Origin: an uncultured delta proteobacterium
GTDB lineage: Bacteria; Desulfobacterota; RBG-13-43-22
Length of the DNA stretch: 64,000 nt
Direction of reading: 5' to 3'
NCBI GenBank assembly: GCA_963711835.1
Contig: CAVQFQ010000005.1
Span: 64,001-128,000 of the forward strand
Of the stretch, positions 6,536 to 60,667 are shown piece after piece. A program made the position numbers and the translations under genes. Under the pieces are notes generated by a model that was not told where the DNA came from, did no database searches, and saw only the letters and a program-made list of their open reading frames with translations. The number at the start of each line of letters is the position of its first letter. Position 1 is the first letter of the stretch.

Positions 6536-7859
6536 GAGAATTGTTTTCAGCCGGGAGGGCTACCGCATTCTGTCCGCCGCCAGCGGGACGGAGGCCCTGG
6601 AAATTTTTCGGAAAGAAACCTTTCCGGTTGTCCTGACCGATATCCGCATGCGCCCTATGGATGGTTTGGCCCTGCTGAAAGCCATCAAGAGCCTCCAGCC
6701 CCAAACCGAGGTTATCATGATCTCGGCCTATGCCAGTCCCGAGACAGCGGTAGAGGCCATGAACGAGGGGGCCTACGATTTCTTTCCCAAGCCCTTCGAC
6801 AACCAGGAATTGAAGGCCGTTATTCAAAACGCCCTGACCCGTTATTACGGCCAACCGGATGGGACAGTAGAAACCCCTGCCCTGCCCACCAGCAGACGGC
6901 CCATCATCGGAAATAGTCCCCAGATGAAGCGGGTTTATGATTTAATTTTGAAGGCTTCCCAGGTAATCAGCAATGTCCTGATCACCGGGGAAAGCGGTAC
7001 GGGAAAGGAATTGGTGGCCCGGTCCATTCACGAAAACGGCCCGCGCCAGGACAAGCCCTTCGTGACCATATCTTGCGCCGGGATCCCGGAATCGTTGGTT
7101 GAAAGCGAACTCTTCGGTTATCGCAAAGGGGCCTTTACCGGCGCCTTGACCCATAAAACCGGCCTGGTGGAAACCGCCAATAAGGGGACTCTTTTCCTTG
7201 ACGAGATCGGCGAATTGTCCGCCATCATGCAGGTCAAGCTCCTCAGACTGGTCCAGGAAAGGACCTTCATCCCCTTGGGCGATACCCGGGAGCAATCCGT
7301 AGATGTCCGGTTTATCCTGGCCACCAATCGGGACCTTGAAAAAGAGGTCATGGAGGGGCGCTTCCGCTACGACCTTTATTACCGCATTAATGTCATCACC
7401 ATCCCCTTACCGCCTCTCCGGGAACGCGCTGAGGATATTCCTTTGCTGGCCCATCATTTCATGGAGAAGTATTCCAGGCTGTTGGGTAAGGAGATCCGAA
7501 AGATCTCCTCCTATGCCTTTAAGATCCTTTCCCAATACCATTTTCCCGGGAATGTCAGGGAGCTGGAAAATATTATTGAGCGGTCGGTGGCCATGGAGCG
7601 CTCCACCATCATTCTGCCGGAGAGTCTGGCCCTGGCCCATTATAAAGACGTCCCGGCCGCTCCGAAAGAAGGCCCGGTTTTTACCCTTCCCGGGGAGGGC
7701 ATGGACCTGGACCAAACCCTTGACCAGGTGGAAAAAAATTTACTTCTCCAGGCCTTGCAAAAAACCATGGGGAACAAACAGCGGGCCGCCGATTTATTAA
7801 AGATCAACCTGCGATCTCTTCGTTATCGCTTGCTGAAGCACGGCCTGGATGCCGAATAG
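6536..7859 (+). CDS. Sigma54-dependent response regulator (NtrC/PilR-like), first ~15 residues missing
   Basis: Receiver LTDIRM...MDG, Walker A GESGTGKE, GAFTGA, LDEIGEL, Fis-type HTH. Confidence 0.9.
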
Positions 7860-7877
7860 ATGCTTTTACAGCCAATT

Positions 7878-8048
7878 TTGAAAATTTATCTCACCCTTTC
7901 AACTTTCAGGTATTAGGGGGTCTTATTTTTGTTGATTAGGAGCAGGGCATTCATCCCGCCGAGGCGGGACTCATGGCCAAGGGGTGGACAACTCAAAAAA
8001 CAAGACCCCCTAATACCAAATTTAACAAGAGGGAGAGAAAAATTTCAA
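7878..8048. repeat. Nested palindromic element copy A (frame in minus orientation, internally shortened core 7909..8017)
   Basis: Arms GGTATTAGGGGGTCTT / AAGACCCCCTAATACC; core GCAGGGCATTCA...GGTGGACAAC shared with copies at 12874, 51564, 60433. Confidence 0.85.
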
Positions 8049-8065
8049 ATCTCTTTGGTTAGGCT

Positions 8066-10352: not shown

Positions 10353-10412
10353 CTTCTTGCCGGTTTTTTTTGGAAAATTGTTACCCATTTTACAAGAGGG
10401 ATTGGCACCATC

Positions 10413-10551
10413 AAATTCGAAGCACGAAATCCGAAACTCGAAGTAAAACCTAATTTTCAAATTCCAAAACAAATAGACAAATCGGTTTTGAACATTTACG
10501 ACTTAGAAAATTTAGATTTGTTTCGGATTTCGATATTCGGATTTCGAATTT
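10413..10551. repeat. Imperfect palindrome built of 7-nt units (CGAAATC/CGAAATT type)
   Basis: AAATTCGAAGCACGAAATCCGAAAC ... GTTTCGGATTTCGATATTCGGATTTCGAATTT between convergent genes. Confidence 0.75.
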
Positions 10552-10560
10552 AAAATCTGA

Positions 10561-11367
10561 TTAGGCCAGCTCCAATCGAATAGGACGCCCTAAAAATTCT
10601 TGGGCGATTAGTTCGAAATTCGGGGTCAAATCGGAGACGAAAAAACGATGGCCGGCCTGAGCAACCGCCGGTTCCAGGGATCGCATCAATTCCGGATTTT
10701 TTCCCAGATACTCTTTAACCCACAGGGCCACCTCTTGCGAAGAGTCGATGATTTGGCATTTCCGGCCCATCTTGGCCTGGATCACGGATTTGAGTAAGGG
10801 ATAGTGGGTACAGCCCAATACCAGGGTATCGACCTGTTTGGTCTTGATAGGCTGGAGGTACTTGCGGACGATCCGCTTGGTTTCAGGTCTTTTAAGCCAG
10901 TTCTCCTCCACCAAGGGGACCAGCAAAGGGCAGGCCTGCGAAAAAACCTGGATGTCCGGCCGGCTCTCTTTAAGCAGCCTTTTATAAATATGGCTTCCTA
11001 CGGTAGCCCTGGTCCCGATAATCCCGATACGATGGTTTCGGGTTACCTGGAGGGTCTTTTTTACAGCCGGGCCGATGACCTCAAATAGAGGGATGGCAAA
11101 GCGTTCCCGCAAGACCTCTATGGCCACGGAAGACACCGAGTTACAGGCCACGACAATAATTTTGGCCCCCTGGTCAATGAGGAATTGGGTGTCTTCGACG
11201 GCGTAGTCGATAATGGTTTTGGGGCTTTTGGTCCCATAGGGGGTGCGGGCCGTATCCCCGAAATAGACGATCCGGTAGTTGGGGAGTTTATCCAACACCT
11301 CGCGCACAACCGTCAATCCGCCGATTCCGGAATCAAAAATACCGATCATGCTCTTCACTTTACTCAT
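10561..11367 (-). CDS. murI: Glutamate racemase
   Basis: FDSGIGG, PYGTKS, VACNS, LGCTHYP. Confidence 0.96.
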   Translation of the reverse strand: MSKVKSMIGIFDSGIGGLTVVREVLDKLPNYRIVYFGDTARTPYGTKSPKTIIDYAVEDTQFLIDQGAKIIVVACNSVSSVAIEVLRERFAIPLFEVIGPAVKKTLQVTRNHRIGIIGTRATVGSHIYKRLLKESRPDIQVFSQACPLLVPLVEENWLKRPETKRIVRKYLQPIKTKQVDTLVLGCTHYPLLKSVIQAKMGRKCQIIDSSQEVALWVKEYLGKNPELMRSLEPAVAQAGHRFFVSDLTPNFELIAQEFLGRPIRLELA

Positions 11368-12561: not shown

Positions 12562-12846
12562 ATGAAATTAGGCCCCCAGGAAATAGAGCACGTAGCCCTT
12601 CTGGCCCGGGTCCGGGTCAGCCCGGAAGAAATCGATCTTTTTACCCAGCAACTGAATGATATCCTGATCTACATGGAAAAACTGGCGGAAGTGGACACCA
12701 CCGGGATCGAACCCGCCCCCCAGGCCCGGCATCTCTCCAATGCTTTTCGTGAAGACCTGGTCCTGCCCTCTTTGCCGGCGGAAGAGGCCTTGGCCCTGGC
12801 GCCCCGGCAGGCTCGTTCTTCCTTTGTGGTCCCCAAAGTGATTTAA
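12562..12846 (+). CDS. gatC: Asp/Glu-tRNA amidotransferase subunit C
   Basis: IEHVALLAR...FREDL...FVVPKVI. Confidence 0.93.
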   Translation: MKLGPQEIEHVALLARVRVSPEEIDLFTQQLNDILIYMEKLAEVDTTGIEPAPQARHLSNAFREDLVLPSLPAEEALALAPRQARSSFVVPKVI

Positions 12847-12873
12847 TAAGGTCTCAAAGTATAGTGACCAACC

Positions 12874-13074
12874 GGGACCGGGGGTCTTCTTTTCTGGGGT
12901 TGTCCAAAGGGTAACTCATCGCCCTATCGGCCGAACGGCTAGTGGGTTAGGTGCAGGGCATTCACCCGAGTCCGTCTCGGGCATTAGTGTCGGCCTGTCT
13001 CTGGATTAGTTCGATTGGCCGGAAAGAAGCTTTGGGCTTGAAGGTGGACAACCCAAAAGAAGACCCCCGGTCCC
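12874..13074. repeat. Nested palindromic element copy B (diverged core, different flanks) between gatC and gatA
   Basis: Arms GGGACCGGGGGTCTTCTTTT..GTTGTCCA / TGGACAACCCAAAAGAAGACCCCCGGTCCC; core motif GCAGGGCATTCA. Confidence 0.85.
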
Positions 13075-13292
13075 ATTTAAGACAAGCTCCTCAATTTCAG
13101 GTCACGACTATTAGGAGACCCTTAATAACTGGAACCAGGAGACAAGTTCGCTCCTCTTTCAATCGGGATGCCGCTATCCCCCGGCATCATGGTCTGAGAA
13201 TCCCTCTTCTCTCCCCCTCCCCCGGCTCTGCTGAGCGCATTGCAGTCTCAGAGGGGCTAAGAAAGAAGTTGGGATAAGGAATTTAAGAGACT

Positions 13293-36395: not shown

Positions 36396-38386
36396 GTTGG
36401 AGTAGGAATCAGGGTTGCCCCTGACCCCCTCCACAGATCCCAGCGTGCGGGACTACCGCACTGGGCTCCTACCTTGGGTAATGACGTACCGGCCCAAGTC
36501 GGGATAAGGATGATAGATTCGCGGACGGGGTAACCATCGGGATATGAATCGGTTCATACGCTCCCAGTTCAGGCGGTGTCGTTGGCTTCGTCTCTGGAGC
36601 GTTTTGTACCACAGATGACTGACATGATACCTAAAGGCCTCCATTTTATCGCTGTTCCCCGGTACACCATAGTACCGGTAGTGGCCCAGCAGTACCACTC
36701 GAAGCCATTGCCCGACCTCCGGTATGGGGTCGTGAAGCCTTCGTCTGAGTTCCTCCTTCAACTGCCTTCAGCTTTCCTCGGATTCGTTTCCCCATACTTC
36801 GGCGGTTCACGACAAACTTACCGTTTCGGGTCCGTCCGCAGCTATGGGTGAACCCCAGAAAATCAAAGGTCTCCGGCTTCCCTTGGCCCCGCTTGGCCCG
36901 GTTTTCCGCCGCAAACCGCCCAAACTCCAGAAGGCGGGTCTTGTCGGCGTTCAGTTCCAGTCCAAATCGGTGAAAACGTTCTCGCAGCGCTTCCAGAAAC
37001 CGGATGGCCTCTTCCCGATACTGAAAGCCAATAATGAAGTCGTCGGCAAATCGCACGATGATCATCTCCCCGTGGGCTTGCTTTCGTCTCCATTGGTCGG
37101 CCCAAAGATCCAGCACATAGTGCAGGTAGATGTTGGCCAGCAGAGGGCTGATACTCCCCCCTTGCGGCACTCCTTCTTCCGGCAGGGATTTCTTCCCCTC
37201 TTCCATTACACCGGCCTGCAACCACTTCCGTATGTGCCGGATTACCCGTTTGTCCGCTATCCGGTGCTCGACGAACTTCACCAGCCATTCGTGGTCGATG
37301 GAGTCAAAATAACCCCGAATGTCGGCGTCCAGCACCCAGCTTACCTTTCTCGTCATGATCCCGGCCATCAGGGCGTTCAGCGCCTCATGGGGACTGCGCC
37401 CCGGTCGGAATCCATACGAGAAGCCGAGGAAATCCGTTTCGTAGATGCCGTTCAATACCTCCACCAGTGCCCGCTGGACGATCTTGTCCTCCAGGACCGT
37501 CACCCCCAGCGGCCGCTGTCTTCCCATCCGGTTTCGGTATGTAGGCCCTACGAACCGGCTTGGCTCGGTACGCTCCGCGTTTCAGCCGTTCGGAGAGATC
37601 TCTGGAGGTTCTTCTCCCGATCTTCCCCGTAGTGCCGCCACGTCTCCCCGTCTATCCCCGGTGCGGCTTCCCGTTTCAGTTCCCAAGTAGGCCTCCCGGA
37701 GTCGGTCCAGGTCATAGACATGGTGCCAGAGCGCGGTAAACTGCATCCTTCCTATCCCGGCAGGCAGCCTGCCGTATCCGTTCCACCGCACTGGGCAAGC
37801 CATTCAGTTCGAGTTGGTCTTCCTTCCGGATCAATGGTCCTTCAGTGATTCCCATCCCGTCCTCTTCTCCGGCCCTGGGTCCGGTGCTTGTTTTGGTGGA
37901 ACGTCTTCCCCTTGGTCAGGCCCCTTCCCTCCACCTCCTCCGCCAGTCGGATTCTCACCGACTCTTGTTCGGAGGCTTCTCCGGTACCTATGGGCCTGTC
38001 CGACTTCCCCGGTTCGTTCATCGCTGTCGTGTCCCCTTGGGGTTCACAGCGCGTCCCCTGGTTCCATCTCCCAAGGGCAAACCAGGGATCTCCCGGTTCC
38101 CGTGCAGAAAGCTTCCAGACGTGCGCAGGGTCTCCGACCACGCGGGGCCAATACACTTCTCGCCTTAGCGAAGTGCATCGTGTTGCCTTCCGTGCACGTC
38201 GACGCCGTCGGCACCCCGATCTTGAGCCACCTTTCGCGGCTCAATACCTGGCCCGCCTTTTCCCCTGTCAACGCTTCGCCTATGCCCTTACGGACATCTG
38301 CGCATGACTCGGGGCCGATGTGGCTGGCTATGCCTTCATCGTATGGAACTTTCATCCACTACTTTCTGCCGGTCTCCCGGCGCAAC
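36396..38386 (-). mobile_element. Group II intron (En-minus; 5' boundary +/-1 nt)
   Basis: 5' end (G)TTGCGCC; domain V GAGCCCAGTGCGGTAGTCCCGCACGCTGGGATC; domain VI with bulged A ending CTCCAAC; RT ORF inside. Confidence 0.92.
36453..38021 (-). CDS. ltrA: Group II intron RT/maturase (several frameshifts)
   Basis: SYGFRPGRS, VLDADI, PQGGSISPLLANIYLH, RFADD, FDFLGF, maturase GHYRYYGVPGN. Confidence 0.9.
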
Positions 38387-40712: not shown

Positions 40713-40785
40713 ATTTTTCTCCTTGAATACCTTATACCACCAGTCCCGGGGTTTTTCCAAATCAAAAAGGGAACGGGCACCCAAT

Positions 40786-40890
40786 AGATTCTTACATCTT
40801 TTAGTCTGAGAATTTATCTCTAACTTTCCAAAATAAGGTGTTGGGGGGACCCCCCAACACCATTTCTTCAAGATGTGAAAAAAATTTAAA
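40786..40890 (-). repeat. Nested element copy E: empty outer frame
   Basis: Minus strand GAAGAAAT-GGTGTTGGGGGG-T-CCCCCCAACACC-TTATTTTGGAAAGTTAGAGATAAATT; same flanks as copies C and D but no core. Confidence 0.8.
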
Positions 40891-40907
40891 ACATCTTTGT
40901 TTGGGCT

Positions 40908-47653: not shown

Positions 47654-47711
47654 TATTTTGTTGGACATTAGGGGTACTAACTGGTTAAATTCGGGTTTTA
47701 CTATTTGATCA

Positions 47712-47752
47712 TTTGGATTTGTTTCGAATTTCGAAATTCGGATTTCGAGTTT
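47712..47752. repeat. Half copy of the 7-nt-periodic CGAAAT repeat
   Basis: GATTTGTTTCGAATTTCGAAATTCGGATTTCGAGTTT, close match to 10515..10551. Confidence 0.7.
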
Positions 47753-50964: not shown

Positions 50965-51540
50965 ATGGACCTCCTGAGCCTCGACACCAGGTTGTTTTAT
51001 TGGATTAACCAGGGGCATCGCAACGCCCTCTTTGACTGGATCATGCCTTGGGTTACCGAATTTGACCACTGGAAATGGTTCCTATTATCGGCCTGGATTA
51101 TTCTTTTTTTCCTGGGAGACCGGAAGGTAAAAATCAGATTAGGCGTATTGGTTCTTCTAGTGGGGGTTCTGGACTATTCCAATAGTTTTTTCTTTAAACA
51201 CCTTTTCGCCCGCCCCCGGCCCTGTAATTTCCTGACCGGAGTTCATAGCTTCTGGCCCTGCCCCCGCTCCTTTTCCTTCCCCTCCAATCATGCCGCCAAT
51301 ATCTTTGGGGCGGCCTTTTTTCTCGGCTATCTCTACCGGCCTTGGTCCCCACCCTTGCTTTTTACAGCAGCCCTGGTAGGTTATTCCCGGGTTTATGTGG
51401 GGGAGCATTATCCTTTTGATGTCCTGGCCGGAGCCGTACTGGGGGCCATAGGGGCCGGTGCCGCACTGGTCGTTTATATCTGGATGGGGACTTTCCTTAA
51501 GAAAAACCGTAAGGGAAAAATTCTAAACAAAGAACCTTGA
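50965..51540 (+). CDS. PAP2-family membrane phosphatase
   Basis: K...RPRP, SFPSNH, SRVYVGEHYPFD. Confidence 0.92.
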   Translation: MDLLSLDTRLFYWINQGHRNALFDWIMPWVTEFDHWKWFLLSAWIILFFLGDRKVKIRLGVLVLLVGVLDYSNSFFFKHLFARPRPCNFLTGVHSFWPCPRSFSFPSNHAANIFGAAFFLGYLYRPWSPPLLFTAALVGYSRVYVGEHYPFDVLAGAVLGAIGAGAALVVYIWMGTFLKKNRKGKILNKEP

Positions 51541-51563
51541 AAATTTTGGTATCGTGATGAAAT

Positions 51564-51806
51564 GCTGTAGGGGTGCCCTATTTTTTAAGTTGTCCACCCC
51601 CAAGCCATGAATCCCGCCTGGCGGGACAGGCCTTCACCCGAGCGGGAAATGGGCTGGAGTAAATGCCCTGCTATAAAATAAACTTAGTTATTCGGGCCGG
51701 ATTAGGGGCTCTTGGTCACCCTTTGGACAACATAAAAAATAGGGCACCCCTACAGCTAATTTTGGTAAGTTAGAGATAAATTCCCAAACTAAAAGATGGT
51801 AGAATC
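51564..51806. repeat. Nested element copy C (frame +, core inverted)
   Basis: 33-bp arms GCTGTAGGGGTGCCCTATTTTTTAAGTTGTCCA / TGGACAACATAAAAAATAGGGCACCCCTACAGC, then frame motif AAGTTAGAGATAAATTCCCA. Confidence 0.88.
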
Positions 51807-52285
51807 TATTCCGGTGGGAGTTCCCCTGGGCTGATTTTTTTACCCACGTGGGTATCCTTTTCCAGATCAGGGCGCGGGGTTTCCTTTTTCTCCTCTTTTT
51901 TCAAGACATAACCCACATGGCGGATAAGGCCGTCAAAGTCTTCTTTTTGTTTTTTATAGACCTCTTTTACGGCCTCGTCAAAAGAAGCGGCTCTTTTCTC
52001 CAGGTCCTCCAATCTCTTCTTATATTTTAAGAACAAAAAGGCGGCCGCCCCCACCAGGGCCAAAAGGAGCAGGATAAGAAAAATAATAAAAAAAAGGCCG
52101 GCCGGAGTAATGCGGTAATAGGTCACCAGAGGTTGGGTCTGCCAATAGGGAGACCTCCCCGGCCATTGCATCTCCGGCAGGATTCCTCCCTGGGAAAAGA
52201 CCCGGCCCGCTGCCGCCGGGATCAGGGAAATCGCCAAGAAGATAAGGGCCGTCACAGGCACCGGGGTCTTTTTATTTTTTCCCAT
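51806..52285 (-). CDS. Hypothetical membrane protein with coiled-coil tail
   Basis: Signal-like segment, one TM, overlaps the end of the CoA ligase. Confidence 0.55.
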   Translation of the reverse strand: MGKNKKTPVPVTALIFLAISLIPAAAGRVFSQGGILPEMQWPGRSPYWQTQPLVTYYRITPAGLFFIIFLILLLLALVGAAAFLFLKYKKRLEDLEKRAASFDEAVKEVYKKQKEDFDGLIRHVGYVLKKEEKKETPRPDLEKDTHVGKKISPGELPPE

Positions 52286-53963
52286 GCGCCTCCCCCCCCG
52301 GTTCCGGGTTCTTTTGTTTGACCAGTCTCCTTTTTTCTTCATCCCTAATTTCCCGCCGGAGCAGTTTCCCTACCTTGGATTTGGGGAGCATATCCCTGAA
52401 TTCGATATACTGGGGGATCTTATAAGCAGCCAGCCGTTCCCGGCACCATTTGATCAGCTCTATTCCACCGACCCCTTTGGCATCGCTTTTCATGACCACG
52501 ATGGCCTTAATCCGCTCCCCCACCTTGAGATCCGGAATGCCCACGACACAGGCGCCGATGACCGTTGGATGGTCCTGCAAAACCGCCTCGATCTCCGAAG
52601 CCGAAACCCGGTAACCCTTGTGCTTGATGATGTCGGCCAGACGCTCCACATAGACCAGTTCTCCTTCCGGGGTTCGGCGGACAAAATCTCCCATGCGGTA
52701 ATAGACCTTTTCGTCCCGGTTCATATAGGCCCGGGCCGTTTCATCGGGCTTGTTCCAGTACTGCTTGATGGTGAATTCGGACGTCACGATCAGTTCGCCC
52801 ACCTCCCCGTCCTGGACCGGTTCCAGTGTTTCCGGATCGACTACAAGGCACTCCCTGGATTTCAGGGGCAGGCCGATGGACTGGGGATCCGTCTCCCGGT
52901 TTAGAGGGCTGTAGGTGATATGGCCGGCCTCGGTGGAGCCGTAGACCTGATAAATGGAGACGCCGAAATTTTCCTTCCAGCGGTTGTAGACCTCCAGCGG
53001 CAGGACGTCCCCCCCGCAATAGCAGTATTTCAGGCTGCCGAGGTCGTACCATTCCAGGCGGTCGTTTTCCAAGATCATCCGGTAGAGGGTCGGAACGCCC
53101 AGCAGCCAACGGACCCGGTAGCGGTGGATCGCCTCCAGGATGGCGTCCACCTGGGGAACAGGCATTAAAATGGTGGTGTTCCCCTGGTTGAGCCCTACGG
53201 CCATAAAAAAACCCAAGGCCATGATGTGGAAAAGGGGGTTTACGGCAATATAGGTATCCTGCCCTTCCTGGATGGTTCCCCCCACCACATCCTCCATGAT
53301 GTCCTGGATATAGGAGGTCATCCCAATATGATTACCGGGCACCCCCTTAGGGAACCCGGTGGTCCCGCCGGTGTACAGGATGTAGGATAGGTCGTTCCAG
53401 GGATCGATGGTAACTGTCGGAGGGTTGGGCGGAAATTTCAGCAGGTCTTTGAAGGGGACGACCTTGCTGTCCCGTCCGATTTTGCCGCCGGGGATTTTAT
53501 CAAACAGGGTCCCGATGATCCGCTTCCAAACCGGGAGCAGGTCGGCCAGGTTGGTGACAATGGCCCGTTTCAGATTGGTGTTACCCAGGACCTCTTTCAC
53601 ATACCCGAAATTGGTGTCGTGGCATATGATAGTTTCCGCCCCGGCATCCCGGACCATGTACTCAATCTCATGAGAGGTATAGATGGGGGATACGGGAACA
53701 ACGACGGCCCCAGCTTTTTGAATACCCAGAAAGGCCACCACCCACTGGATGCAGTTGGAAATATAGAGGATGACTTTGTCGCCCGGCTTTACGCCCATCT
53801 CGGCCAGGCCGGCAGCGAAGCGGTCCGCCAGGTCCTTGAGCCGCCGATAGGAAAATTTCTCCCCCAAATAGACCACGGCGGTTTTCCCCGGATACTGCTT
53901 CACTATGGCTTCGAAGCGTGCAAAGACCGGTTCGGCTGGATAATGTTCAGCAGGTATAGGCAT
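52272..53963 (-). CDS. Acyl-CoA synthetase (AMP-forming)
   Basis: YTGGTTGFPKG, YGSTE, MGD, LPKSKVGK. Confidence 0.92.
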   Translation of the reverse strand: MPIPAEHYPAEPVFARFEAIVKQYPGKTAVVYLGEKFSYRRLKDLADRFAAGLAEMGVKPGDKVILYISNCIQWVVAFLGIQKAGAVVVPVSPIYTSHEIEYMVRDAGAETIICHDTNFGYVKEVLGNTNLKRAIVTNLADLLPVWKRIIGTLFDKIPGGKIGRDSKVVPFKDLLKFPPNPPTVTIDPWNDLSYILYTGGTTGFPKGVPGNHIGMTSYIQDIMEDVVGGTIQEGQDTYIAVNPLFHIMALGFFMAVGLNQGNTTILMPVPQVDAILEAIHRYRVRWLLGVPTLYRMILENDRLEWYDLGSLKYCYCGGDVLPLEVYNRWKENFGVSIYQVYGSTEAGHITYSPLNRETDPQSIGLPLKSRECLVVDPETLEPVQDGEVGELIVTSEFTIKQYWNKPDETARAYMNRDEKVYYRMGDFVRRTPEGELVYVERLADIIKHKGYRVSASEIEAVLQDHPTVIGACVVGIPDLKVGERIKAIVVMKSDAKGVGGIELIKWCRERLAAYKIPQYIEFRDMLPKSKVGKLLRREIRDEEKRRLVKQKNPEPGGEAHGKK

Positions 53964-54065
53964 TTGGGTTTTTGTTCAGTTCAAAAGTTTTGATAAAAAG
54001 AGAATATTAAATGCCGAAGCTTTTGATCTCCTTCTCCTTCGATATTCATTATTCGTCGTCATGCC

Positions 54066-54812
54066 CTACACCCCGAAATAGGCCGAGCGCACGTCCGGAT
54101 TGTCGAGCAGTACCTGGCGCGTCCCCTCCAGGACGGCCGCCCCGTTTTCCAGGATGTAACCGTAATCGATGATCGGGATGATCGGCCGCGCATACTGCTC
54201 GGTCACCAGGATGGTGATCCCCCGCTCCTTATGAATCTCCCGGATGGCCCGGACCAGCATGGCCTGGACCAGGGGACTCAACCCCATCAGCGGCTCATCC
54301 AGCATAAGGATCTTGGGCTGGGCCATGAGGGCCCGGCCGACGGCCAGCATCTGCTGCTCGCCGCCGCTCAGGAACCCGCCCTCCCGGTCTTTCAAGGGGA
54401 CCAGGGCTGGGAAGATCTTGAATACGTATTCCAGGGTTTCCTTCTTCTGCCGGCCCGAGGCCAGGTAGCCGCCGATCATCAAGTTTTCCAGGACCGTGCT
54501 CTCCGGGAAGATACGCCGCCGTTCCGGGCAGAGGACGATCCCCAGTCGTGCCCGCTGGCTGGGCTTGAGTGGCATGATGTCCCGGCCCTGGTAATGGACT
54601 TGGCCCAAGACCGTAATACGCTCCCCGCCGGCCATTTCCTCCTTGCGCTTAATGTCCAGGATGATTCCGGAAATAGTGTACATCAGCGTGGACTTACCGG
54701 CGCTGTTGGCCCCGAAAATCCCGACGATCTGGCCTTCGTCCACCTTCAGGCTGACATTGTTCAAGGCCAGCATATTCTCGTAAAAGACCATCAATCCCTG
54801 GGCTTCAAACAT
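54066..54812 (-). CDS. Branched-chain-type ABC ATPase (LivF-like)
   Basis: GANSAGKS, LSGGEQQM, LDEP. Confidence 0.9.
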   Translation of the reverse strand: MFEAQGLMVFYENMLALNNVSLKVDEGQIVGIFGANSAGKSTLMYTISGIILDIKRKEEMAGGERITVLGQVHYQGRDIMPLKPSQRARLGIVLCPERRRIFPESTVLENLMIGGYLASGRQKKETLEYVFKIFPALVPLKDREGGFLSGGEQQMLAVGRALMAQPKILMLDEPLMGLSPLVQAMLVRAIREIHKERGITILVTEQYARPIIPIIDYGYILENGAAVLEGTRQVLLDNPDVRSAYFGV

Positions 54813-55587
54813 AATCGGAAAGGTCCTCTGACCCCAGATAGGCTTCTTTGACTTTTTTATCAGCCATGACTTCATCCGGGGAACCTTCGATCAATTTTTG
54901 CCCGAAGTTGAGCACCATCACACGGTTGGCCACCCGGAACAATTCTTTCAACCGGTGCTCGATCATGATCAGGGTAATCCCCTCCATCTGCAGGCGCTCG
55001 ATAAGGGGGAGCATGCTGGCGATCTCACTCATGCTCAACCCCGAAAAGACCTCGTCACATAGGATCAGCTCCGGCCGCAGGGCCAGGCATCGGGCCAGTT
55101 CCAGCCTTTTCAGGTACCCGGTGGGCAGGGTCGAGGCCAGCTTGTAGGGCACCTGCGAATCCCTCTCAAAACCGATTTCCTCCAGGATGTCGATCCCGAC
55201 CGTGTCCCGGTCCCCCAGTTTTCCGCCCCCTCGCCAGCCACCCTGGCGTCGGGCCCGGGGGGAAAAAAGAGGGACGATCAAATTCTTATAAGCCGGCAGG
55301 CTGTAATAGGGGCGCATGATCTGGAAAGTCCGGGTGACCCCGAGGTCGGCGATTTTATGGGGAGCCCAGTTGGTGATCTCCCTTCCTTTAAAGAAAACCT
55401 TTCCCGAATCCGTCCTGACAAAACCGGTAATACAATTAATCAAGGTGGTTTTCCCTGACCCGTTCGGTCCGATGATCCCCAGGATCTCTCCACGGTTGAG
55501 TTTAAAGCTTACCCTGGACAAGGCCTGGATCCCGCCGAAGGCCTTGCTGACCTCCCGGACTTCGAGAAGGGCCGTTTCCGGATTCAT
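54805..55587 (-). CDS. Branched-chain-type ABC ATPase (LivG-like)
   Basis: FGGIQAL, GPNGSGKT, RTFQ, EAYLG. Confidence 0.9.
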   Translation of the reverse strand: MNPETALLEVREVSKAFGGIQALSRVSFKLNRGEILGIIGPNGSGKTTLINCITGFVRTDSGKVFFKGREITNWAPHKIADLGVTRTFQIMRPYYSLPAYKNLIVPLFSPRARRQGGWRGGGKLGDRDTVGIDILEEIGFERDSQVPYKLASTLPTGYLKRLELARCLALRPELILCDEVFSGLSMSEIASMLPLIERLQMEGITLIMIEHRLKELFRVANRVMVLNFGQKLIEGSPDEVMADKKVKEAYLGSEDLSDYV

Positions 55588-56597
55588 ACCTTCACCCACT
55601 TTTCAAACTGGTGGTATTTCCGCTGGGCATAGACCATGATCCCTTCGCTGCGGAAAACGATAAAGGCCATGAGAATCAACGCGTAAAAAACAATCCGCAG
55701 GGTGCCGAAGGCCCGGAGCAGCTCGGAAACGGGTACCAGGATGAGGCTGCCAAGGACCGGACCGACCAGCGTCCCGCCCCCGCCAATGACGGTGGCGGCG
55801 ATAGGAATGATGGAAAAATCCAGGGCCAGGGTGGAGATGCCGGCCCACATATAGATGTGCACCAGATAGGCCCCACCGAGGCAGGCCAAAGCGGAGGAAA
55901 TAAACACGGCCAGGGTCTTGTAGCGGGTGATGTTGATCCCGGAGGCCTTTACAGCCTGGTCGTTGTCCTTGACGGCCCGGAAAACCAAACCCAGGTCGGT
56001 ATTCACCAGGCGACGTAAACCGAACATGGCCACCAGCACGACCAGGATCAGGGAATACTGTTCCACCCAGCGGTTGGGGAAGCTGGAAACGCCCAGGATC
56101 CCGTCGGTGCCCCCGAAAATGTTCAGGGCCTCGATAACCCGCATGGCCAATAAGGGATACATGAGGGTCACGATGGAAAAATAGACCCCCCGCAGCGGCA
56201 AACAGGGCAGGATGGCCAGCGTGCAGAAAACCCCTCCGCCTATGGTGGCCAGGGGAATGGAATAGAGGGGTGACAGGCCGAGTTTGGTGTTCAGCAGGGC
56301 CGCTATATAGCCGCCCACCCCGACAAAAAAAGCCCCCCCCAGGGAAACCAGGCCGACAAAATGGGTCAGGAAATCAAAACTCAGGGCCAGCAGGGCGTAG
56401 ATGCCGACAATGGAGATCACCCGCTGCCAGTAGGGATTGGTAATGACCAGCGGCAGGAGGAGAAGTCCCACGATCAAGACCAGGCGGGGCAGGATCAGGT
56501 AGCCGATCTCCTTGCCGCCGGAAATGGCGTAAATGCCGCTGGTCCGGACTTTGATCCCCCGGTCCAACCGTTCTTTGCGGACATCGGTGCCGGCCAT
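55584..56597 (-). CDS. ABC permease (LivM-like)
   Basis: LRGVYF, GGTDG, GG.GTLVGP. Confidence 0.88.
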   Translation of the reverse strand: MAGTDVRKERLDRGIKVRTSGIYAISGGKEIGYLILPRLVLIVGLLLLPLVITNPYWQRVISIVGIYALLALSFDFLTHFVGLVSLGGAFFVGVGGYIAALLNTKLGLSPLYSIPLATIGGGVFCTLAILPCLPLRGVYFSIVTLMYPLLAMRVIEALNIFGGTDGILGVSSFPNRWVEQYSLILVVLVAMFGLRRLVNTDLGLVFRAVKDNDQAVKASGINITRYKTLAVFISSALACLGGAYLVHIYMWAGISTLALDFSIIPIAATVIGGGGTLVGPVLGSLILVPVSELLRAFGTLRIVFYALILMAFIVFRSEGIMVYAQRKYHQFEKWVKV

Positions 56598-56599
56598 GA

Positions 56600-57466
56600 T
56601 CAGACGCGCTCCTCCAGTTCCTTCTGGCGGCCAAAGAGTCCCGAAGGTTTGAGAATTAAGGTGATGATGATGGCCAGGATGGCCACCACCATTTGAAAGT
56701 GGGGCTCGAGGTAGACCACGGTCAGGATCTGGGCGAAACCGATGACAAAAGCGGCCAGCACCGCCCCCACCCAGCTTCCCAGTCCGCCGACGATGCACAC
56801 GGCAATGGCCATGATCAGCACGTTGTACCCGGCTTCGACGACGATGTTCCCCAGGGGCAGCAGGGCCACTGCAGCCAGTCCGGCCAGCACCGAACCCAGG
56901 AACATGGACAGGATGGCCATGCGGTCGGAGTCGATCCCCAGCATCATGGCCGCCCGTTCGTCCTGGGCCATGCCGCGCAGGGCCAGGCCGACCCGGTTAT
57001 AATGGGTAAACAGCCAGAGCAGGCCCATGACAACCGCCCCGATGACCACCACAAAAATCCGCTGGTAATCGATCATCACCCCCAGGAGATTGAAACTTCC
57101 GGGGATGAAAGCCGGGAGGGTGTAGGTCATGCCCTTGAACCCTCCCCAGCGCAGGCCCTCCAGGATCGCCAGCCCGATGGCGTAGGAAGCGATGATCTCG
57201 GAAGTTACCATGCCCCTGATGCGGATCAGGATGAAATAATAGATGGCCGCCCCGATCAATCCGATAATGAACAAACCCAGGAGGATGGAAAGGAAGTAAT
57301 TCAGATTCAGGGTGTGAATCAGGCTCCAGACGATAAAGCCGGTGACGATATACAAGGCCCCGTGGGCGAAATTCGGCAGGCCGCTGATACCGTAGACCAG
57401 GGTAAACCCCAGGGCCATCAGGGCCAGGGTGACACTGTTGACGATCCCGTAGACCAGTATTTCCAT
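56600..57466 (-). CDS. ABC permease (LivH-like)
   Basis: ALGFTLVYG...NFAHG, GGLGS, PSGLFG. Confidence 0.9.
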   Translation of the reverse strand: MEILVYGIVNSVTLALMALGFTLVYGISGLPNFAHGALYIVTGFIVWSLIHTLNLNYFLSILLGLFIIGLIGAAIYYFILIRIRGMVTSEIIASYAIGLAILEGLRWGGFKGMTYTLPAFIPGSFNLLGVMIDYQRIFVVVIGAVVMGLLWLFTHYNRVGLALRGMAQDERAAMMLGIDSDRMAILSMFLGSVLAGLAAVALLPLGNIVVEAGYNVLIMAIAVCIVGGLGSWVGAVLAAFVIGFAQILTVVYLEPHFQMVVAILAIIITLILKPSGLFGRQKELEERV

Positions 57467-57642
57467 AGCCGCCCTAACCGGACTAATCTTGGTTTAAATC
57501 CGAAATCCGAATTTCGATCCGCATATTCCCCCCCCCTTGGACCCGCCTGCGGCGGGATTAGGGAGGGGGAGGTGTTCAGATCATCCTTTTTTATCCAGTA
57601 TCCAGTATCGTTGTTAGTCTTTATCCAGTATCAGTTTTTACT

Positions 57643-58923
57643 CTACTTCTTCATCCAGGGCGGAAGTAAAATCTGCCCGGTGGCGATGGACTCCGGGAAG
57701 ACCACGACCCGTTTGCCCTTTTGCCACTGAAAGATGGTCCCGACAGCCCCTTCCTTGGGATTCAGGCTGGGGATCACCTGGTGGGACTTGGGATCAAAGC
57801 GGATCCGTCCGTAAACCCCCATCAGGTCGGTCTTTTCCAGGGCGGCGATCACCGCGTCGGCCTCCAGGGACCCGGCCCTTTCGATGGCGTCCTTCAAGGT
57901 GTAGACCGCCATGTAGCTGCTGGACGTCCCGTACCCCTCCGGTTCGATCTTCCAGCGCTTGGTGTAGGCGTCATAAAATTTCATGGTCCAGGGCGTGGCT
58001 TTGGAGGGAGCATTCCCGGCGTTGACCACATTGGCCAGGGCGAATTCCCCCTTCCCTTCCGTAGCTTTCCAAAATCCGGGCTGCTCGGCGGGGGCGATGA
58101 TGGAGCCGAAAGGCAAGGCTGCAATTTTGAGATCATACCATTGTTTTAACAGGATAGAACTTTCGGGCATGTCCATCCAGATTAGTATTATCTGGGCCCC
58201 TTCCTTCTTGGCCTTGAGCAGTCCCATGGAAAAATCCGTGGTGCCGGTGGGGTAGATCTCCGGGTTGCCTATCACCGTCCAGCCTTTTTCGGCCATGACC
58301 TTGGCTATCAATCCCCCGCCCCATCGGGCATGGGCCACATCCTGGATCATAATGAACAATTTATTGATATTGTATTTTTTCCCGATCTCAAGCAGGCTGG
58401 GGATCATCTCCCCGTTCACCATCCATACGGCCTCTCCGCTGATCCGGAAGCAGTATTTGTACTTGTCGTATTCTTTCGCCACCCGGGCATGATAGGCCGG
58501 GGTCAGGGCCCCGGTGGTCAGGATGGAAACCTTCTTATATTTGGAAAGCAGGTCCATGGCGGCCAGGGCAGCCTCGGAGCGGACCGGCCCGCCGACGATG
58601 AAATCCGCCTTTTTTTCCAAAATAAGCTTCTCGACCGTCAGCAGGGCGTCACTGACCGGTACCCCCGGTTCCAAGTCGCGGGTGTCGATCACCTCCACGG
58701 CAAAGGGCCGTTTGGTCCCCCCCACCTTCACGCCGCCCTGGGCGTTGATTTCTTCGACGGCCAGCCGGATGGCCCGCTCAGCGTCCCAACCATAAAGAAA
58801 GGCCGTCGCCAGCGGGGCGCCGATGACAATAGGTTCGGCCGCAGCGCTGCCGGCGGCCGGAAGAAATAATCCGGCCAGAAAAAATGCCAGCCATACCCAT
58901 AGGGTGAAACCTTTTGCTTTCAT
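57643..58923 (-). CDS. ABC substrate-binding protein (LivK/aromatic acid family)
   Basis: Signal peptide, LAVEEINAQGG, AIERAGS, QWQKGK. Confidence 0.9.
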   Translation of the reverse strand: MKAKGFTLWVWLAFFLAGLFLPAAGSAAAEPIVIGAPLATAFLYGWDAERAIRLAVEEINAQGGVKVGGTKRPFAVEVIDTRDLEPGVPVSDALLTVEKLILEKKADFIVGGPVRSEAALAAMDLLSKYKKVSILTTGALTPAYHARVAKEYDKYKYCFRISGEAVWMVNGEMIPSLLEIGKKYNINKLFIMIQDVAHARWGGGLIAKVMAEKGWTVIGNPEIYPTGTTDFSMGLLKAKKEGAQIILIWMDMPESSILLKQWYDLKIAALPFGSIIAPAEQPGFWKATEGKGEFALANVVNAGNAPSKATPWTMKFYDAYTKRWKIEPEGYGTSSSYMAVYTLKDAIERAGSLEADAVIAALEKTDLMGVYGRIRFDPKSHQVIPSLNPKEGAVGTIFQWQKGKRVVVFPESIATGQILLPPWMKK

Positions 58924-59129
58924 ACCGTTCCTCCTTATTTGGATTGATTAACTCCACCTAAATAGTAATATTACTGCGGGGCCATCCCGAAAAATGGGAG
59001 GACCTTATCTTTGGATCGTGCTTTGGTGTCGGGTATGATTGGAGCTAAAGGCAACCGCCTCGGTCTTTACCTGACCGGGGTTCTTTTTTTGTATGGTATC
59101 CGGAGCCCCTTTATTTATCAAGCAAATTT

Positions 59130-60173
59130 CTACAGAACGGCCCAGGGTTTGGGCAGAAAGATCTTTTCATAAAGGTTCAGGGCATAACGGTCGGTCATGC
59201 CGGCGATGAAATCGGTCACCTTTTGGACGATGGTTTCCGGCTGTTCCCCGCCACCACTCCAGCCGGTTTCCATCAGAGCGGGTTTGGCCAAGAGGGCCTG
59301 ATACAACTCGCTGATGATCTTCCGGGCTTTTATGAAGTCCTCATGGACCCGTCCGATTTCATAAACCCGTTCATAGAGAAATTCCCTCAAGTGGACCATG
59401 GCCTGGAGGACTTCCTCCCCCAGGGTCAGGCCTGAGAACGGTTCTTCGAGGCTGTGATAGACCAGGTCATGGACCATGGTGTTGATACGCTGGGAACTTC
59501 GATCACCCAGGACCTTCAAACAAAAGGGGGGGATTTCTTCTTCAGCAATGAGGCCGCCCCGAATGGCGTCATCCAGATCATGGCAGATATAGGCGATGAT
59601 GTCGGCCACCCGAACCACCTGCCCTTCCAGGGTCAGGGGTTTTTCAGAGGATTTTTCGGGCAGGATATCGCCCTTGCCTTTGGAATGTTTTAGAATGCCG
59701 TCTCTCACTTCCAAGGTCAGGTTCAAGCCCTGCCCCCCCTTTTCGAGGTGGTCGACAATCCGTAGGCTCTGCACGTGATGCACAAAACCTCCGGGAACAA
59801 TTTGGTTCAGGACCTCTTCCCCGGCATGGCCGAAGGGTGTATGACCCAAATCATGCCCCAGGGCGATGGCCTCGGTCAGGTCTTCGTTGAGACTCAAGGC
59901 CCGGGCTATGGTGCGGGCAATCTGAGAGACTTCCAGGGTGTGGGTCAGGCGGGTCCGGTAATGATCCCCGGTCGGAGCTAAGAAGACCTGAGTCTTATGC
60001 TTCAGGCGCCGGAAGGCTTTGGAATGGATAATCCGGTCTCGGTCCCGCTGAAAGGCGGTCCGGATCGGGCAGGCCTCCTCAGGCCGGAGCCTCCCCCGGC
60101 TGGCGGAACTCCGGGCCGCCAAAGGAGATAACTGATCCTGTTCTTTTTTTTCTATGGTTACTCGGATATCCAT
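59130..60173 (-). CDS. dgt: dGTP triphosphohydrolase
   Basis: [39 protein letters not shown]. Confidence 0.93.
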
Positions 60174-60399
60174 ACCAGGAGGTCCATGGGTTTTCATTTT
60201 TACCAAGAATTTAAAAAAAAACAAGTCTATTTCCTATCTGGTTATTTTTGTTTACAAAAAAGGCGTCCTGGGCTACTCTTAGCCCAAAGCAGTTCACAGG
60301 CAGCCCCCTGATTTTTAGCCGCGGGAATCCGCTTCCGGATCCCCTTACCCCTTCTATTGGAAATCAGAGGAAAAATGCTCAGAAATTACCAAGCAAAGC

Positions 60400-60645
60400 T
60401 ATTTGAAATTTTTTCTAAAGTTCTGAAGAAATGGTGGCGGTGAGTCTTATTTTTTTAAGTTGTCCGAAGGGTGACTAAGAACCCCTAATCCGGCCCGAAT
60501 AACTAAGTTTATGTTAGAGCAGGGCATTCATCCCGCCGAGGCGGGACTTATGGCTTTGGGGTGGACAACTCAAAAAATAAGACCCCCCACCACCTGATAT
60601 TGGAAAGTTAGAGATAAATTCCCAGAATTAAGAGGGATAGAATTT
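60400..60645. repeat. Nested element copy D (frame +, core +; core 60433..60594)
   Basis: GTCTTATTTTTTTAAGTTGTCC / GGACAACTCAAAAAATAAGAC arms; frame GAAGAAAT ... TTGGAAAGTTAGAGATAAATTCCCA. Confidence 0.88.
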
Positions 60646-60667
60646 CTTCAAAAATCAAACCGTTTCC

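Follow-up and report, generated by a model that had tools for sequence, protein, structure and literature searches.

Repeat copies in the window

The stretch analyzed here (hereafter the window) comprises 64,000 nucleotides of contig CAVQFQ010000005.1 (positions 64,001 to 128,000; assembly GCA_963711835.1) from an uncultured delta proteobacterium of the Desulfobacterota lineage RBG-13-43-22. It harbors several copies of a two-tier intergenic repeat in which an inner core, bounded by inverted repeats, is embedded in an outer frame. The genes around the copies are ordinary: copy C follows a gene for a PAP2 phosphatase and copy D lies between a gene for an HD-domain protein and lptF/G, and neither copy contains an open reading frame (ORF) of 100 amino acids (aa) or more. 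Given the folding z-scores of C and D (-6.35 and -4.63, respectively, with none of 200 shuffled sequences equally stable) and the 133 matches to the core-arm profile in the 3.9-Mb assembly, the repeat is beyond chance. The feature is real: it is made up of miniature transposons, one nested in another, whose hairpin core flips. We consider it probable (at about 0.58) that copies C, D, A and B are gene-less miniatures of an unannotated, CTA-bounded family and that their core flips in place, rarely, repeatedly and passively, via its inverted repeat of ~33 bp.

A first-pass annotation of the window had noticed that C and D share an asymmetric frame in the same orientation while their cores are reverse complements of each other, and that copy A, with its frame on the minus strand and its core on the plus strand, agrees with C in its relative state. 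All of this holds: the aligned frames of C and D, both on the plus strand, are 76% identical over 88 nt, the cores, compared as reverse complements, are 92% identical over 78 nt, and A has the described arrangement, with most of one core arm gone. The core is indeed bounded by inverted repeats, but C and D are both longer than had been described and the inverted repeat reaches further out (Table 1). Two relatives in the window had been missed, namely a core-less frame (copy B) and the same core within a different shell. Below, P denotes the relative core/frame state of D and M that of C and A, and the shells are named F1 to F6; these labels were coined in this analysis.

Table 1. Copies of the repeat and their parts in the window
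Feature	Position	Strand	Remark
Copy C, whole F1 miniature element, core in M state	51523..51808	+	CTA at both ends
C, left arm of the core-bounding inverted repeat	51564..51596	+	33 nt, 97% complementary to right arm
C, core, 141 bp	51590..51730	-	small GC-rich hairpin in place of part of second arm
C, right arm of the inverted repeat	51724..51756	+	pair of 51564..51596
Copy D, whole F1 element, core in P state	about 60389..60647	+	contigs from other runs show the empty site
D, left arm of the inverted repeat	60433..60465	+	sequence
D, core, 109-bp short form	60460..60568	+	
D, right arm of the inverted repeat	60563..60594	+	sequence
Copy A, F1 frame with truncated core on + (M state)	7857..8062	-	
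Copy B, F1 frame without core	40785..40904	-	short central palindrome remaining
Same core within a different shell (F4)	12843..13126	+	ends approximate

The small GC-rich hairpin (~15-19 bp), located at 51611-51625 in C and in the 60540-60547 region of D, is present in many copies in the genome. At several positions, and in several of the shells, it takes the place of differing internal stretches of the core; it occurs outside the family as well and looks like a separate insert-and-replace element.

Core and shells across the genome

The assembly to which the window belongs (3.9 Mb, 28 contigs) is a metagenome bin that is 89% complete and 6.4% contaminated. The 133 matches to the profile of the first core arm were obtained at E ≤ 0.01 across the 28 contigs, and 110 of them have a partner match to the second-arm profile no more than 300 bp away. 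Altogether, 119 cores were extracted, of which 108 could be placed in six shells and 11 in none. The genome-wide tabulation of relative orientation that the first-pass annotation had proposed reveals both orientations in four shells, with P:M counts of 8:13 for F1, 32:9 for F2, 23:3 for F3 and 13:3 for F4 (28 M-state copies in total), along with 1:0 for F5 and 3:0 for F6. In three of these shells the bias toward one orientation is strong, suggesting that orientation is inherited and seldom changes. Some copies are near-duplicates, e.g., C1:80 and C21:25813; this pair and two further pairs of near-identical loci on different contigs (C24:985 and C5:104844; C27 and C17) suggest that the bin contains a second strain.

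Shells F2, F3 and F4 possess terminal inverted repeats. Of the 52 F2 and 44 F3 elements, 36 and 34, respectively, lie between copies of an 8-bp direct repeat (7 or 8 matches), compared with 1 of 52 and 0 of 44 in the 9-bp register control; by the 8-bp test, F4 scores 0 of 21. F5 has its ends in common with F2, and F6 with F3. The core subtype tracks the shell in F1 (21/21), F2 (41/41), F4 (16/16) and F6 (3/3); F3 is split into 18 and 8, with a group of 8 F3 shells carrying an F2-type core. The central stems of F3 and F4 are near-identical, and yet the F4 core occurs in 0 of 26 F3 elements and a core of another type in 0 of 16 F4 elements. Elements of three tiers are found as well, with F2 elements lying within F1 or F4 frames (G000:C16:105740-106147, C17:14286, C4:371093, C25:45072-45285). 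At G000:C10:53480-55975, a 2.2-kb insertion sequence interrupts an F3 copy. It has terminal repeats of its own and a 9-bp duplication that lies within the small hairpin, and its ORF is seemingly split in two frames. A group of F2 cores (G000:C17:14516, C17:172051, C22:35045 and others) contains, in the first arm, a further insert of ~55 bp that has a hairpin of its own.

The core and the F1 and F4 shells are also present in a sister genus, again in both orientations (P:M counts of 7:3 for F1 and 3:1 for F4, read off the profile matches of one locus set). Outside its taxonomic family, the core was not found in the genomes searched. A core model matched 4 of 4 genomes of the same family and none of 141 genomes from the rest of the phylum (16 candidates scored per genome), and the sequence of C matched 10 of 20 same-family genomes, all from genus g4, and 0 of 20 others. 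A strict core pattern produced no matches in a genome-contig collection (genome_contigs), and among orthologous loci in JGI metagenomes neither core nor frame was found in any of 76, the best relative being 86% identical.

Conservation of the repeat across shells and genera is highest in the 6-7 bp at the inner end of each arm. The consensus folding comprises an outer stem and an inner stem, and nearly all two-sided changes map to the outer arm, where arm copying (see below) explains them. The possibility that the core is a structured RNA was rejected on these grounds. Covariation is largely confined to the outer arm, and the core lacks an Rfam match. The comparison with Rfam that had been suggested for the repeat returned no family match at the gathering score: in the window, only part of a group II intron and a tRNA were detected, with no match to the core, and five copies searched at E ≤ 1 produced one 21-nt match of 18.8 bits against a cut-off of 50.

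The F1 frame and its autonomous relatives

The F1 elements are gene-less and 120-320 bp long. In 34 of 36 paired F1 frames, the end profiles are separated by 16-229 bp, and 11 of the 36 are core-less. The two ends are unlike each other, that is, there is no terminal inverted repeat, and CTA or a variant thereof is found at both ends of most copies. The site of D is empty in contigs from other sequencing runs (Logan contigs, denoted X1 to X7): among the joints listed, those in X1, X2 and X4 connect 60390 to 60647 with one CTA kept, and X5 shows nearly the same, shifted joint, likewise with one CTA kept. Parts of the core-less F1 sequence were matched in 21 of 21 genomes of the family. The core-less F2, F3 and F4 frames display varied junctions, with part of the stem removed or part of a core arm kept, and thus appear to be deletions. 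By crude ORF calls (G000), 12 of 35 F1 frames begin within 40 bases of the end of an upstream ORF on the same strand, several of them overlapping the stop codon.

At the locus G019:C51, a 539-aa ORF is located between both F1 ends (profile E-values of 3.4e-7 for the left end and 0.015 for the right end in 2.3 kb), with the F1-like right end ~42 bases past the ORF stop. Among 80 loci encoding relatives of this protein in the genome-contig collection, the F1 left motif is present upstream of the ORF in 67 of the 79 with enough DNA there, and 61 of 73 have the right motif downstream; the counts in control stretches were 0 of 80 and 1 of 400. In genomes with multiple copies, the autonomous element stops at the F1 end motif and the flanks differ. 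Since both ends are shared, the F1 frame, which the first-pass annotation had been unable to assign to any family, is now tied to the family of the 539-aa protein and is a non-autonomous derivative of this CTA-bounded, unannotated family, which itself lacks terminal inverted repeats. F1 has the two ends and CTA borders of the autonomous elements, and differs in being gene-less and carrying a hairpin passenger. It would be mobilized in trans by a partner protein of the 539-aa type. None of the 80 autonomous loci contains the core, so at some point it must have made its way into unrelated shells.

The partner protein showed no match to any Pfam (PF02486 included) or NCBIfam family at E ≤ 1 and none among the sequences of solved structures in the Protein Data Bank (PDB), and a search of the Atlas retrieved hypothetical clusters only. 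Nevertheless, the family is very large, with 6375 relatives among 7999 proteins scored. In the literature searched, to which most subscription papers do not belong, there is no paper on it. The first predicted structure (pLDDT 65.7) matched winged helices only; a model built from 42 diverse relatives (pLDDT 84.7) includes, besides a winged helix at the C-terminus (Z 11.0), a TBP-like sheet (Z 9.1, rmsd 3.9 over 180 residues). A TBP-like fold is a feature of Rep_trans proteins, for which solved initiator structures are available (RepSTK1, 4CIJ; RepDE, 4CWC and 4CWE); these initiators have a crescent-shaped beta-sheet and use a catalytic tyrosine to nick single-stranded DNA. A Foldseek search with the model identified weak similarity to RepSTK1 (4CIJ; E 2.2e-3, probability 0.93, TM-score 0.33 on the target), at ranks 3-7 after two unrelated entries, and residues Y328, K330, R336 and E338 are near-invariant in the 42 relatives. 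The partner is tentatively predicted, from modeling, to be an enzyme resembling rolling-circle initiators.

Upstream of the ORF, two autonomous elements encoding proteins that are only 26% identical (L129:880-931 and L131, in G019 and G020) have an almost identical GC-rich motif of ~50 bp, which may be a regulatory RNA or else a passenger. In many others (L143-L221), an additional ~330-440 bases separate the left end from the main ORF and resemble a small gene on the opposite strand.

We also searched the own genome of the repeat, at its 89% completeness, for recombinases and mobilizers. The family of the 539-aa partner, serine resolvases (PF00239) and Tn3 transposases (PF01526) each gave no matches, and none of the 7 matches to tyrosine recombinases (PF00589) is tied to the repeat. 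There is no invertase beside any copy in the window, in agreement with the first-pass annotation, which had seen no cognate recombinase there. Y1 transposases (RAYT), the mobilizers of REP/REPIN sequences, were rejected because the nearest core is at least 3.5 kb from each of the 12 PF01797 matches, and IS110 (2 matches) because its ends are, by eye, unlike those of F1. A search for Mutator transposases likewise revealed no link to the repeat.

Orientation changes, exchange points and arm copying

The F1 tree (21 hand-listed copies, with C19:75661 included and C5:170322 left out) implies 6 changes of orientation, with a bootstrap range of 5-7 and a mean of 6.7 for shuffled states; a single change suffices in 0% of 200 bootstrap trees. 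The trees of the other shells imply, with weak support, 5 changes in F2 (37 of 41 rows, without two duplicates and two mosaics), 3 in F3 and 2 in F4. The copy nearest to D, C17:91043, has the same short core, 96.8% identical, in the opposite orientation, and the markers just outside the core remain with the frame in this pair. For the nearest pairs of opposite orientation, identity is 96.7-96.8% between cores and 77-79% between frames, the latter including ~10 flanking bases on each side. Lineage-specific markers are common to M-state copies.

Of 9 inverted F2 copies, 7 show a one-base marker beside the core that has moved along with it, and in the other 2 this marker remained with the shell, a split pattern that might also come from a two-step conversion. 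The exchange point varies between copies, and there is no single fixed crossover site. The two arms of a copy resemble each other more closely than arms of different copies do in F1 (2.48 versus 5.15 edits, 0 of 2000 permutations) and in F3 (0 of 2000), and among F1 substitutions, 29 are mirrored on both arms as against 24 that are one-sided. Long arm-to-arm copying is apparent in two F2 copies, C25:34278 and C17:515047: in one, a whole arm is overwritten by the other arm, and the other is a mosaic with the inner loop reversed against the arms. No direct repeat is present at the core borders; the bases outside the G/C runs of the core are inverted copies of each other.

Possible mechanisms of core inversion

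Passive flipping in place is the explanation we favor because the core type follows the shell, the exchange point varies and paired arms are homogenized, and because, in addition, there is no direct repeat at the core borders, the core-less frames resemble deletions and orientation is scattered on the trees. Shell and core would travel as a single unit, with the partner protein acting in trans, and the flip would occur by template switching or by homology-driven exchange across the ~33-bp inverted repeat, without a dedicated invertase. The same slips might overwrite one arm with the other and delete the core, yielding the empty frames. Template switching has been reported to repair stems, invert loops and copy arms (PMC8794818). 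Of the earlier proposal that the core flips between its arms by recombination, the flip survives as a repeated evolutionary event, whereas a dedicated recombinase was not found.

Several observations weigh against passive flipping. The mean column identity of the core, 69% across 18 copies from four shells and two genera, is a level of conservation for which passive flipping gives no explanation. The starred branches of the trees force no more than 2 changes in either F1 or F3 and a single one in either F2 or F4, and the inverted F2 copies are partly clustered (5 changes versus a shuffled mean of 7.3, with 12-15 of 500 shuffles equally low). The markers that adjoin the core on its outer side remain with the frame in the majority of F1 copies, placing the exchange in the innermost 7-8 bp, a pattern as expected from a site-specific enzyme. 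Arm matching is non-significant in F2 (1211/2000) and F4 (163/2000), and the inner loop, which has a short stem of its own, is inverted in just 1 or 2 of the 119 listed cores. No locus was seen in both orientations in the contigs, which by themselves cannot show switching at one locus. Finally, the inversions reported elsewhere are shorter than the flipped segment here, 109-225 bp: loops inverted by template switching are mostly 4-8 nt (PMC8794818), and the small hairpin-bounded inversions common in plastids span 4-50 bp (PMC12371153).

The conservation of the core and its entry into unrelated shells suggest an alternative that we nevertheless deem unlikely. Here the core would be a working cis-acting module (e.g., a site of single-strand replication or strand exchange), captured separately by unrelated transposon families, one of them rolling-circle-like and several with terminal repeats, because it promotes their spread, and actively flipped by an enzyme at more than 100 sites in the genome. 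A site-specific recombinase encoded elsewhere might also flip the core, acting on the conserved bases at the inner edge of the repeat, so that each copy would be an inverton. Invertons have one fixed crossover site, and copying of long tracts from arm to arm is not among the products of conservative site-specific recombination. The best-conserved innermost 6-7 bp of the arms, where the F1 exchanges fall, the tyrosine recombinases encoded in the genome and a repeat length within the 10-40 nt given for invertons (PMC11892184) are compatible with this mechanism. Nonetheless, it has a low probability in our estimation, given the F2 exchanges on both sides of the marker beside the site (7 versus 2), the long copied tracts, which are foreign to such recombination, and flips that occur in unrelated shells, three of which show strong orientation bias.

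Cores could instead be swapped between copies by gene conversion or recombination, with the donor copied either way as the arms are inverted repeats. The high identity of the cores in nearest pairs of opposite orientation, compared with that of their frames, and the 8 F3 shells with an F2-type core are in line with such swapping, but the lack of any exchange between F3 and F4, despite their near-identical stems, makes it quite unlikely, and it leaves the arm-to-arm copying inside one copy unaccounted for. The other earlier proposal, in which the core moves independently and can insert either way round at the central palindrome of several miniature elements, draws on the existence of core-less frames, including 11 of the 36 paired F1 frames, and on the entry of the core into unrelated shells at some time. 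It fits poorly all the same and seems very unlikely: free insertion should mix core types, above all between F3 and F4, whereas the core subtype follows the shell; the bases around the core form inverted rather than direct repeats; and the junctions of the core-less F2, F3 and F4 frames are those of deletions. A gene bounded by the core ends, which the first-pass annotation had recommended searching for, was not seen among the unpaired arms listed. Two-way insertion may account for a handful of ancient captures, but not for the orientations seen today. An artifactual origin of the opposite orientations, through assembly errors across the inverted repeat, might be suspected in a contaminated, incomplete metagenome bin with many repeat copies, but is extremely improbable in view of the 28 M-state copies in four shells, the occurrence of both states in other genomes and the lineage-specific markers among M copies. 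Furthermore, a contig of X1 extends from the unique flank to 51604 in the orientation of C, although this is only 14 bases into the core and below the bridging rule. The X1, X3, X6 and X7 contigs, which are uninformative either way, include no listed strand-changing joint at C.

Comparison with known systems

Like bacterial MITEs (short for miniature inverted-repeat transposable elements), especially the Correia repeat-enclosed element of Neisseria, the elements described here are short, gene-less, multi-copy and intergenic, with a partner that would act in trans. F1 shares with canonical MITEs its small size, lack of genes, multiple copies, an empty site and the ends of an autonomous element, but not the terminal inverted repeats, which are present in F2, F3 and F4. 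Correia elements are reported to be able to invert (review PMC10969869, citing Elbeyioglu 2017), and inversion of the whole Correia element is the nearest precedent. What differs is that here an inner module flips within a fixed frame and that one core is common to unrelated shells. In the literature searched, there is no paper on the repeat or on an inner module flipping inside bacterial MITEs.

In hairpin-loop inversions by template switching and in plastid small inversions, a segment is likewise bounded by a perfect stem with matching arm changes (PMC8794818; PMC12371153), the loops of 4-50 nt described there being located in rRNA, miRNA or plastid spacers and those here in mobile elements. 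Invertons, as described in PMC11892184, resemble the core in having two orientations of a segment between inverted repeats, of which that of C (33 nt) is an example in size; they differ from the present repeat in its variable exchange point, its more than 100 dispersed copies and the lack of an invertase beside the window copies, and the orientations here were derived from contigs. The core arms start with a G run followed, after ~38-40 bp, by a conserved block, which we take to be a resemblance to Tn3 ends. The Tn3-derived TIMEs make a 5-bp direct repeat (PMC4133298), and the core borders have none.

The window contains other features as well. A remnant of a group II intron is located at 36646-38352 on the minus strand, with an Rfam match to domains D1-D4 (38128-38352) and a 293-aa reverse-transcriptase ORF, and a second, unrelated family of short AT-rich repeats and inverted repeats is found at 10403-10568, 47704-47752 and 57480-57517.

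Implications

If the flip is passive, then it is in itself ordinary. F1 supplies the non-autonomous form of a very large, unannotated family of insertion elements, and its core-less copies of ~120 bp suggest the minimal ends required for mobility and hence a test substrate. For hairpin inversion and arm homogenization, moreover, a single bacterial genome here supplies over 100 natural replicates.

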